A stretch of 50,418 bases of DNA. Origin: a bacterium (GTDB taxonomy: Bacteria > Patescibacteriota > Minisyncoccia > Phycocordibacterales > UBA9973). Under the pieces are notes generated by a model. It saw only the letters and a list, made by a program, of their open reading frames with translations. It ran no database searches and was not told where the DNA came from. How positions within the stretch are numbered: position 1 is the first letter of the stretch; every line of letters begins with the position of its first letter. The position numbers and the translations under genes are program-made. Of the stretch, positions 19,084 through 39,582 are shown piece after piece. Location: the NCBI GenBank assembly GCA_037200905.1, contig JBBCGN010000006.1, positions 1 through 50,418 on the forward strand, written 5' to 3'.

Positions 19084-19266
19084 AAATCTTTTGAGAGAGC
19101 AAACTGCTTTGCTCTAGAAAAAATTTGTGAAGACGGAGGCATATGTTTGCAGTGGCAAACAAGCCGAGTCCGGGTCTGGAAAATTTATGAGCGACGGCGA
19201 GTAAATTATTGTGGATCACTGATAGAAAAATAAAACTCTGTAGGATTTCCTACAGAGTAAAAATAA

Positions 19267-37176: not shown

Positions 37177-37832
37177 TCACGCGATGTGCGGATGCTTCAA
37201 GAAGATCTCTCCGATTTCGTACCAGCTCCTGACGCGGTTCTTGATGCCTGTGACGTTGTCGTGGACGCCGAGCGGATCGTAGAGGCATGCGAATATGTCG
37301 TCCTGCGTCGCGAGGATCTCAGCCGGCGAGTTGTCGATGAAGCCGGCCTTTTTGGCTTCGCGAGGCAGGCCTCTCACGACCACGTCGCTTTTTTGGACGG
37401 TCTTGAACGTCCCGTCCTGCAAGAGTTCCCGCACGCACCGGACATTGTCGACGGAGTCCGGGATCTGCCTTTTGACGACATGATTGATGACGTCCAGGCC
37501 GCGGCGCTCCCTGCCTGTCACGATCCAGATGGTGTATCTTTTGGCCAGGCGGGGAAGCACTCGGACCATGTCGGGATCCATGGGCTGCACGTCTGCATGC
37601 AGCTCGTACGAAGGCAGGAGATGGATGCTGGCATCGCGGTATATCTCTTCTCGCGTGGGACGCTTGTCTTCGGAAAGTATTTTCCTATCGCCTCCTCAAG
37701 GGGCTGCTCGCGTATGTAATCCCCGAGGCACGAGCTGATACTGTACCGCTTATTGAAGTAGCTGATATATACGGCCAGCGTGTCGAACATCGTTTGGTCG
37801 AAATCTAAGAACAAGAACGGTTTTTCGGTCAT
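37177..37832 (-). CDS. 5'(3')-deoxyribonucleotidase-like HAD phosphatase (NT5C-like), frameshifted
   Basis: FLDFDQTMFDT, IVTGR, KSDVV, FIDNS, SWYEI. Confidence 0.75.
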
Positions 37833-37908: not shown

Positions 37909-37936
37909 TTGATAGTGGGGATAAATATGCTACAAT
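37909..37936 (+). promoter_or_regulatory. Sigma70 promoter for the structured RNA and tRNA-Ser
   Basis: TTGATA, 16 nt, then TACAAT preceded by TG (extended -10). Confidence 0.6.
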
Positions 37937-37947
37937 AGCCGAGCTAA

Positions 37948-38068
37948 GGAGACGTGGCTATGAGATATGAACTGCTTCATATCTCATCCGGTTCCGCGAA
38001 GCGGAAAGAGCCGTTGCCATAGGCAGGCTCTAGGGAAGGGCCCGAGAAGGGCACGAAGCCCGTCTCCG
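37948..38068 (+). ncRNA. Candidate tRNA-Ser-like multi-hairpin RNA, unclassified
   Basis: GGAGACG..CGTCTCC-G closing stem identical to the tRNA-Ser acceptor stem, enclosing several hairpins. No canonical anticodon loop or T-loop. Confidence 0.5.
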
Positions 38069-38078
38069 AGCATAGCGA

Positions 38079-38168
38079 GGAGACGTGGCTGAGTGGTTGA
38101 AGGCACTGGTTTCGAAAACCAGCATATGGGAAACCGTATCGTGAGTTCAAATCTCACCGTCTCCGCCA
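38079..38168 (+). tRNA. tRNA-Ser(CGA)
   Basis: CTGGT-TTCGAAA-ACCAG anticodon arm, long variable arm, G discriminator, CCA. Confidence 0.95.
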
Positions 38169-39243: not shown

Positions 39244-39582
39244 GAACATCAAATAAGGCAGGGTTTTCTTTGTATATTTGTCTTAGGTTCCGTATAATTC
39301 TGTCTAAGTTCGCGAAATTGAGCCGCTTCGGTTCAAAGTTGTGCCAACCATCACCGCAGTTTTGAACGCAGTGAGAAACTGCGGAGCGAGCGAGCAAACT
39401 GCTTTGCTCGCGTGTGAGGTTTGAACGACGGAGTGTGAAATTTTCAGTAGGAAATTTCCACAAGTCGGTGCCCAGACCGGAATTTTTCGACGGAAAAATT
39501 CCGAATCGCGGGCAAATCTCACCGTCCTCCGCAAAAAGAAAAGCCCTTGCATGTATATACATGCAAGGGCTTTCGGATTGCC

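Follow-up and report, generated by a model that had tools for sequence, protein, structure and literature searches.

The segment at 37947/48-38077 of the window, meaning the whole 50,418-nucleotide stretch of patescibacterial DNA analyzed here, is probably (roughly 70%) one copy of a non-autonomous, structured insertion element lying directly 5' of a tRNA-Ser(CGA) gene. The element belongs to what is apparently an order-wide family of structured insertion modules undescribed so far, and from comparison of loci across genomes we infer that it is mobile now or was so recently. The original prediction for this locus had offered three readings: a novel tRNA-like RNA or SerRS decoy, a folding switch controlling tRNA maturation, and a miniature palindromic insertion with target duplication. 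Insertion with target duplication comes closest of the three to the sequence evidence: a precise insertion and a 12-nt duplication are found, while the simple palindromic MITE gives way to a multi-helix core. The parts of the element and its neighbors are as follows.

37909-37936, plus strand: promoter-like site TTGATA-16-TACAAT, sigma-70-like with a TG-extended -10, ending 11 nt before G37948
37947-37959, plus strand: R1, an upstream copy of the tRNA-Ser 5' end (nucleotides -1 to +12), AGGAGACGTGGCT
37960-37987, plus strand: P2, a 12-bp hairpin, ATGAGATATGAA-CTGC-TTCATATCTCAT
37988-38006, plus strand: J2/3 (CCGG) and the P3 hairpin TTCCGC-GAA-GCGGAA (P3 proper at 37992-38006)
38007-38031, plus strand: P4 hairpin, AGAGCC..GCC-ATA-GGC.GGCTCT, with a GUU/A internal loop
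38032-38056, plus strand: J4/5 (AGGGAAGG), P5 (GCCC-GAGAA-GGGC, 38040-38052) and J5/1 (ACGA)
38057-38068, plus strand: P1', the acceptor-like strand AGCC+CGTCTCC+G
38069-38077, plus strand: linker AGCATAGCG from element to tRNA (family consensus GARNNNARYGA; missing in some copies)
38079-38168, plus strand: tRNA-Ser(CGA), intact and with CCA encoded (ARAGORN; Rfam tRNA, 58.6 bits)

R1 supplies the 5' strand of a closing helix, P1, in which GGAGACG.GGCT (37948-37959) pairs with AGCC+CGTCTCC (38057-38067), followed by G38068 and without a CCA. A second copy of AGGAGACGTGGCT, R2 (38078-38090, including A-1), provides the first 12 nucleotides of tRNA-Ser(CGA), and the intact gene begins there, 131 nt downstream of R1. 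P1' is the complement of R1 and, equally, of the real tRNA 5' end. Within the closing helix, the CTGC loop of P2 sits in a conserved context (AACUGCUU), the family consensus is CCGGUUC..GAA for J2/3-P3 and UAGGNGG for J4/5, and the apical part of P4 differs from copy to copy. No ORF of the GIY-YIG kind lies in the window element (37947-38078).

The architecture described in the original prediction is borne out: both copies of the 13-nt repeat (at 37947 and 38078), the four inner hairpins (P2-P5, between 37960 and 38052), the closing stem with its adjoining G and no CCA, and the promoter 11 nt upstream, with its end at 37936. A lone 13-mer repeat at such spacing lies within chance for 50 kb; recurrence at 28 independent tRNA-Ser loci is beyond it. 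On the 5' side of the element, a divergent HAD-like gene (37177-37832, minus strand) is present as two overlapping ORFs (104 and 137 aa), a split possibly due to a frameshift.

The 121-nt stretch is predicted to fold at -63.3 kcal/mol, compared with -39.1 +/- 3.7 for 200 shuffles (z -6.6; no shuffle as stable). The alternative anticipated in the original prediction, in which the 3' strand P1' pairs with the true tRNA 5' end over an 11-nt loop, is also real. For the whole precursor, the equilibrium ensemble gives this swapped arrangement (R1 with the tRNA 3' end and P1' with R2) a mean pair probability of 0.67, compared with 0.32 for the native arrangement, where R1 pairs with P1' and R2 belongs to the acceptor stem; when P1' is replaced in silico, R1 and R2 compete about equally. 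Since the swapped fold is favored at the predicted equilibrium, a thermodynamic "insulator" role for P1 is unsupported, and any insulation would be kinetic at best. The same modeling suggests that the element may carry a cost to its host.

BLAST of the element against 60 relatives placed it in three genomes of the same genus, including a copy upstream of tRNA-Ser(GCU) and a genome with two tandem copies. A covariance model of the ~130-nt unit, built from five copies and applied at a threshold of 60 bits, yields 35 matches above that score in 30 of 212 genus genomes (~14%). Each of the 31 matches inspected has a tRNA-Ser gene directly on its 3' side, or else another copy that does, and the element is in sense orientation at every inspected tRNA-Ser locus. 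The genes downstream carry the anticodons CGA (14), GCU (7), UGA (4) and ACU (3). In 21 of 28 cases R1 reproduces the opening 12 nt of the local tRNA exactly, and in another 5 there is 1 mismatch, an agreement that spans six tRNA 5'-end variants. The acceptor-like CGTCTCC(+G) occurs in two of the 31 copies (window and L067 only); the ~29 others have CGACGAG or a similar strand that pairs in a different register, with tRNA positions ~4-12. Relative to its nearest relative, the window copy has TC in place of GA at P1' (CGTC[GA]CGAG), and the discriminator G is not conserved among copies.

The window genome (677 kb, 72% complete), in which five tRNA-Ser genes were found, holds one full copy only, at one of these genes, along with two weak tandem cores and lone P2-like hairpins. 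With a single full copy, a multi-copy MITE within this genome was rejected. ARAGORN also reports, in the same genome, a tRNA-Ser with anticodon ACT (A34) beside tRNA-Ser(GCT) (C2 12540-12629, minus strand); this unusual isoacceptor recurs in the genus (L052, L054, L056 and L062), where it too bears the element.

Homologues 5' of tRNA-Ser, which the original prediction had proposed to collect, are thus present in relatives, and their helices covary. In a genus alignment of 33 copies and 38 pairs, with shuffles and slid structures as controls, 93% of cells are paired and compensatory double changes affect 23 of the 38 pairs, whereas shuffles give 13.6 +/- 1.6 and slid structures 3-9. P2-P5 are 85-100% paired in the genus (P5, 98%); P1 is 85% paired with two covarying pairs, a C6-G to U6-A change seen four times, and GU 20 versus AC 6. 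An alignment of 59 core copies from the whole order gives 98% of cells paired, 22 of 24 pairs covarying, and 345 compensatory cells versus 81 in shuffles. Across the order P2 is 99-100% paired with compensatory changes in 11 of its 12 pairs, and all six outer pairs of P4 covary. GU outnumbers AC order-wide by 16 to 2, so the fold appears to be selected on the sense strand. AACUGCUU, CCGGUUC, GAAA and UAGGNGG are near-invariant across the order, and such conservation of unpaired nucleotides would fit a functional RNA as well as a parasite.

Evidence for insertion comes from syntenic loci. At empty sites (L020, L022 and L032; L027), the promoter ends ~8-12 nt before tRNA +1; at filled sites (L040, L041, L039, L045, L051 and L063; L061), the same promoter (TTGAAAAAA...TAGATT) stands at the same distance before R1. 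Because promoter spacing is equal in filled and empty sites, the element must begin with the old tRNA 5' end, and the second copy is where the working tRNA starts. This comparison is drawn from other genus genomes, no relative locus having the window's own flanks. At L013 a deletion scar has R1 joined to the linker end only. Tandem copies are found in G010 and at L051, L102 and L108, with two or three units per array; this would follow if every insertion restored a new target.

A maximum-likelihood tree of the core, from which R1 and P1' were excluded, mixes isoacceptors: its starred (well-supported) branches require a minimum of 3, 2, 2 and 3 label switches. The CGA copy of the window has its closest relatives in L048 (89% identity) and L043, both GCU, and ACU and UGA copies are nested among CGA copies. 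R1 matches the local gene while the core tree mixes isoacceptors, which is most simply explained by a new duplication with each insertion, although concerted evolution between resident copies might produce some of the same signal in the tree. The duplication varies in length across the family (12 nt, or 12-13 in the window, and 17, 18 or ~50 nt), and the sole "inverted repeat" is R1/P1', one arm of which is derived from the target. To our knowledge, no known transposition chemistry accounts for a variable duplication length or a target-complementary right arm.

Weaker matches of the first model exposed other contexts, and a second model was built from P2-P3-P4 alone. Of the 301 genomes of the order, 98 contain this core, as do 77 of the 190 genera; a genome may have up to 12 copies, often in tandem or at contig ends. 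The organisms are Patescibacteria of the Candidatus Nomurabacteria / Paceibacterota type. In one genome (G332), near-identical cores follow directly after D-loop G18/G19 of copies of the Val, Lys(UUU), Lys(CUU), Ser and Thr genes; each is succeeded by a segment complementary to tRNA nucleotides ~8-18 and then by a repetition of the upstream flank and tRNA 1-18 that runs on into the intact gene. Two other genomes (G357 and G246) have the core between nucleotides 19 and 20 of a truncated tRNA copy, which the intact gene adjoins. At tRNA-Gln(CUG) in the window genus, the core interrupts a decayed outer tRNA-Gln, and the intact tRNA-Gln lies enclosed within the P4 of this core. Where elements lie on the 3' side of tRNAs, their terminal part repeats the T-arm and 3' end.

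Several further observations touch on the tRNA contexts. In the window genome, two tandem, partly decayed cores lie between two minus-strand tRNA-Met genes and on the opposite strand (C1 290667-290869), the only antisense arrangement observed. In the window itself, a P2-like hairpin (GCGAGCAAACTGCTTTGCTCGC, 39385-39410) and further hairpins precede a tRNA-Ser 3'-end remnant (..CAAATCTCACCGTCCTCCGC, 39515-39540) ~1.35 kb behind the tRNA, and the same hairpin core recurs in the tRNA-Glu island at 19096-19115. The hairpins and remnant look like a 3'-side version of the family. Core-bearing pseudo-tRNA copies at L100, L101 (G357) and L078 have a GC-rich palindrome (CCTGCCTGCCGGCAGGCAGG and variants) in their 5' part, which appears to be a second, independent hairpin insert.

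The core also extends beyond tRNA genes. Two genera carry it within 23S rRNA as a ~122-nt insert at LSU model position ~228; the insert follows GGAGGAA at both loci (L119, G053:C7; L124, G314:C19) and is flanked at L119 by the direct repeat ATAAAARGCAA. In rpsI (uS9), the last four codons and stop (W-S-K-R-stop) constitute the 5' strand of P2 (L082, L083, L088, L115 and L127), and the complementary strand tracks synonymous codon changes. P2 of the rpsI type is found in 5 of 401 genomes, in one of which the same P2 closes a MurF-like ORF; given this rarity, the rpsI 3' end was rejected as the ancestral, universal home of the core. The rpsI gene of the window genome (C5 96135-96476) is an empty site with an ordinary terminator.

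A mobilizing factor was sought among ORFs within 1.2 kb of 35 named loci, which were clustered: no transposase, integrase or reverse transcriptase is tied to the Ser elements there, and no longer, cargo- or integrase-bearing version occurs at these loci. Recurrent neighbors belong to housekeeping families (thioredoxin-reductase-like, RuvX-like and membrane proteins). Small GIY-YIG ORFs do lie within 300 nt of four module loci (of ~70) and beside tRNA-Gln(CUG) of the window genome. Their positions are C1 278524-278757 in that genome, L051 1979-2203, L062 999-1226, L098 567-716 and L077 2-190; at L051, the ORF has tRNA-Ser(CGA) on one side and, on the other, a second copy of that tRNA's stretch from T-loop to 3' end. 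Through this co-location, GIY-YIG nucleases become candidates for the mobilizing factor, which is a lead, not a result.

The life of such an insertion can be envisioned as follows. Insertion would duplicate or re-supply the displaced gene end, and the essential tRNA would survive; the former tRNA-Ser promoter would then drive element and tRNA as one transcript. Upon transcription, R1 may pair with P1' while R2 and the tRNA 3' strand are still to be made, locking the decoy 5' end away and, on kinetic reasoning, thereby leaving R2 free for the real acceptor stem. Cleavage by RNase P at R2 would free the tRNA. The acceptor-stem look of the window copy would be a by-product, R1 being tRNA sequence and P1' its complement. 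The core would most likely serve propagation or recognition by some factor, with the GIY-YIG nucleases at tRNA ends as candidates.

RNase P RNA (RF00010) is present in all eight same-genus genomes tested, including the element carriers G010 and G015. It was not found in the window genome, which is uninformative in a 72%-complete assembly. A missing RNase P as ground for a self-processing leader was accordingly rejected.

A more specific form of the insertion reading is tentative: the core may define a hitherto undescribed class of RNA-structured selfish element of Patescibacteria that invades loop-coding positions of tRNA and rRNA genes and the ends of other genes, targets sites through a helix between host flank and internal strand, evades counter-selection by regenerating the gene end instead of by splicing, and uses its core as a recognition site for a minimal nuclease (the co-located GIY-YIG proteins, for example) or as a catalytic or guide RNA in its own integration.

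It is unlikely that the segment is instead a host-beneficial, cis-acting leader, a regulatory or chaperoning 5' domain of the precursor in which a toggle between the two folds sets the amount of mature tRNA-Ser, or from which a stable noncoding RNA with a function of its own is released. A leader would explain why the Ser-type unit always lies behind the tRNA promoter and always in sense, why P1 covaries with the tRNA sequence (the fourfold C6-G to U6-A change), and why unpaired nucleotides are kept order-wide and GU exceeds AC as for structure at the RNA level. An element found in no more than ~14% of the genus genomes, and here beside a single one of five tRNA-Ser genes, is difficult to reconcile with such a service, and empty syntenic sites work without the element, with only a scar left at one site. 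Dead tRNA fragments and 23S rRNA harbor this core too, and it also occurs at the rpsI stop codon and where a MurF-like ORF ends; in the tRNA-Gln version the outer parts decay. The folding switch of the original prediction fares likewise: the precursor is indeed bistable in silico (0.32 versus 0.67), but its uneven presence among genomes, the scar left by a deletion and the number of unrelated contexts speak against a dedicated regulator.

Still less probable is the scar of an integrase-mediated element (an attL/attR remnant), whose attP would have carried the tRNA 5' end and whose cargo has since been lost. Direct repeats of a tRNA end are a hallmark of such elements, and the tRNA-Ser 3'-end remnant near 39515-39540 could be taken in the same sense. 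A scar would not be expected to keep a ~120-nt unit conserved whole and with RNA-type covariation, however, and the 35 named loci include no version with cargo or integrase. The core within 23S rRNA and after the rpsI stop has no tRNA att site, and the 5' end or D-loop is an atypical target for integrases.

A true tRNA-Ser mimic, recognized by SerRS or RNase P through its acceptor stem, G73 and long extra arm and acting as a decoy or being charged, is very improbable: although R1 and CGTCTCC+G in the window give a 7-bp acceptor stem and discriminator, and the four hairpins and closing stem add up to as many helices as a class II tRNA has, the element lacks an anticodon loop, a T-loop and a CCA. 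ARAGORN and cmscan (E<=10) recognize nothing besides the tRNA at 38079-38168, leaving 37948-38068 without a match, and comparative data disfavor mimicry, with the acceptor complement limited to two of 31 copies and a variable discriminator.

The original prediction's tRNA-like RNA or SerRS decoy is therefore left unsupported, and the insertion element is the reading carried forward. In the bacteria with the smallest genomes, tRNA and rRNA genes are single-copy and essential. A compact folded element would be able to colonize such genes across the order and leave its host alive, since the gene end is rebuilt with every insertion. Should the element be mobile, as the comparative data suggest, it would represent a new strategy of genetic parasitism beside self-splicing introns and att-site-carrying islands, and it would account for many calls of "pseudo-tRNA," "tRNA mimic" and short rRNA insertion in CPR genomes. 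Its conserved ~85-nt core would likewise make a promising candidate for a catalytic or protein-binding RNA of a new kind. For annotation, such units should not be reported as tRNA-like genes.

Known RNA families offer no home for the element. It is unmatched in Rfam 15 at E<=10, with no gathering-score match to the element in the window, and Rfam finds only tRNA and LSU rRNA at 13+6 related loci; the Rfam check that the original prediction had proposed turns up no described family. No published description was found in Rfam or in a full-text literature search. Candidates judged by eye (SRP RNA, RNase P RNA, 5S rRNA, hammerhead and K-turn) do not fit, and Rfam agrees. Self-cleaving ribozyme classes (hammerhead, twister, pistol, hatchet and HDV-like) give no Rfam match at E<=10, and the hammerhead core CUGANGA/GAAA is absent by eye. 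There is no Rfam match to a group I or group II intron either, and the tRNA downstream is uninterrupted.

Comparison with intron guide helices (P1/IGS of group I, IBS-EBS of group II) is nonetheless instructive. As in those systems, a flank (tRNA nucleotides ~4-18) pairs with an internal strand, P1', that covaries with the target. The element differs in having no catalytic core and in leaving the host tRNA unsplit and without splicing, and its guide is located at its 3' end. Insertions in rRNA provide a second point of reference. CPR rRNA genes are described in general terms as rich in insertions (PMC9297842), which are common in CPR 23S genes. Those described are mostly introns of >=0.5 kb, often with homing endonuclease ORFs. 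The core resembles these and the intervening sequences of 23S rRNA in being a ~122-nt 23S insert, and differs in that one module is shared by rRNA, tRNA and mRNA ends.

Free-standing GIY-YIG homing endonuclease cassettes occur in tRNA clusters, as with SegB of phages T4/T6. The likeness here lies in GIY-YIG genes placed between a tRNA and a duplicated end at module loci (L051, L062 and L098); in contrast to such cassettes, the window element has no ORF, and nuclease and module are linked only by lying together at 4 of ~70 loci.

Elements that integrate into tRNA genes, and the CIMEs derived from them, share with the family an intact tRNA accompanied by a partial direct copy of the displaced end, with arrays arising from repeated insertions. 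Direct repeats of the target tRNA are found in the window as R1 and R2; a cognate integrase or longer relative is found in none of the Ser-type flanks. Unlike CIMEs, the element is only ~120 nt, without cargo or integrase, and uses the 5'/D-loop side as often as the 3' side. Its core is also found in rRNA and at an mRNA end, and its structure is RNA-like (covariation, GU > AC).

The closest likeness in size and behavior may be to the MITE-like repeats. The family is small, noncoding, multi-copy and variably present (30 of 212 genomes for the Ser type; 98 of 301 for the core), although no autonomous, transposase-coding relative appears at the 35 loci, which give housekeeping families. Correia/NEMIS, BOX, RUP, ERIC and REPIN sequences are similarly small (~85-135 nt), noncoding and multi-copy in many genomes, and these repeats also share a patchy distribution, tandem and decayed copies, a flanking direct duplication and a stable, co-transcribed fold. 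Where a MITE is a simple foldback, the core described here is a three-to-five-helix junction with loop and junction nucleotides that are invariant across the order. Its targets are loop-coding positions or ends of RNA genes; its duplication, 12 to ~50 nt in length, regenerates the gene end, and one arm of its closing helix is the target itself.
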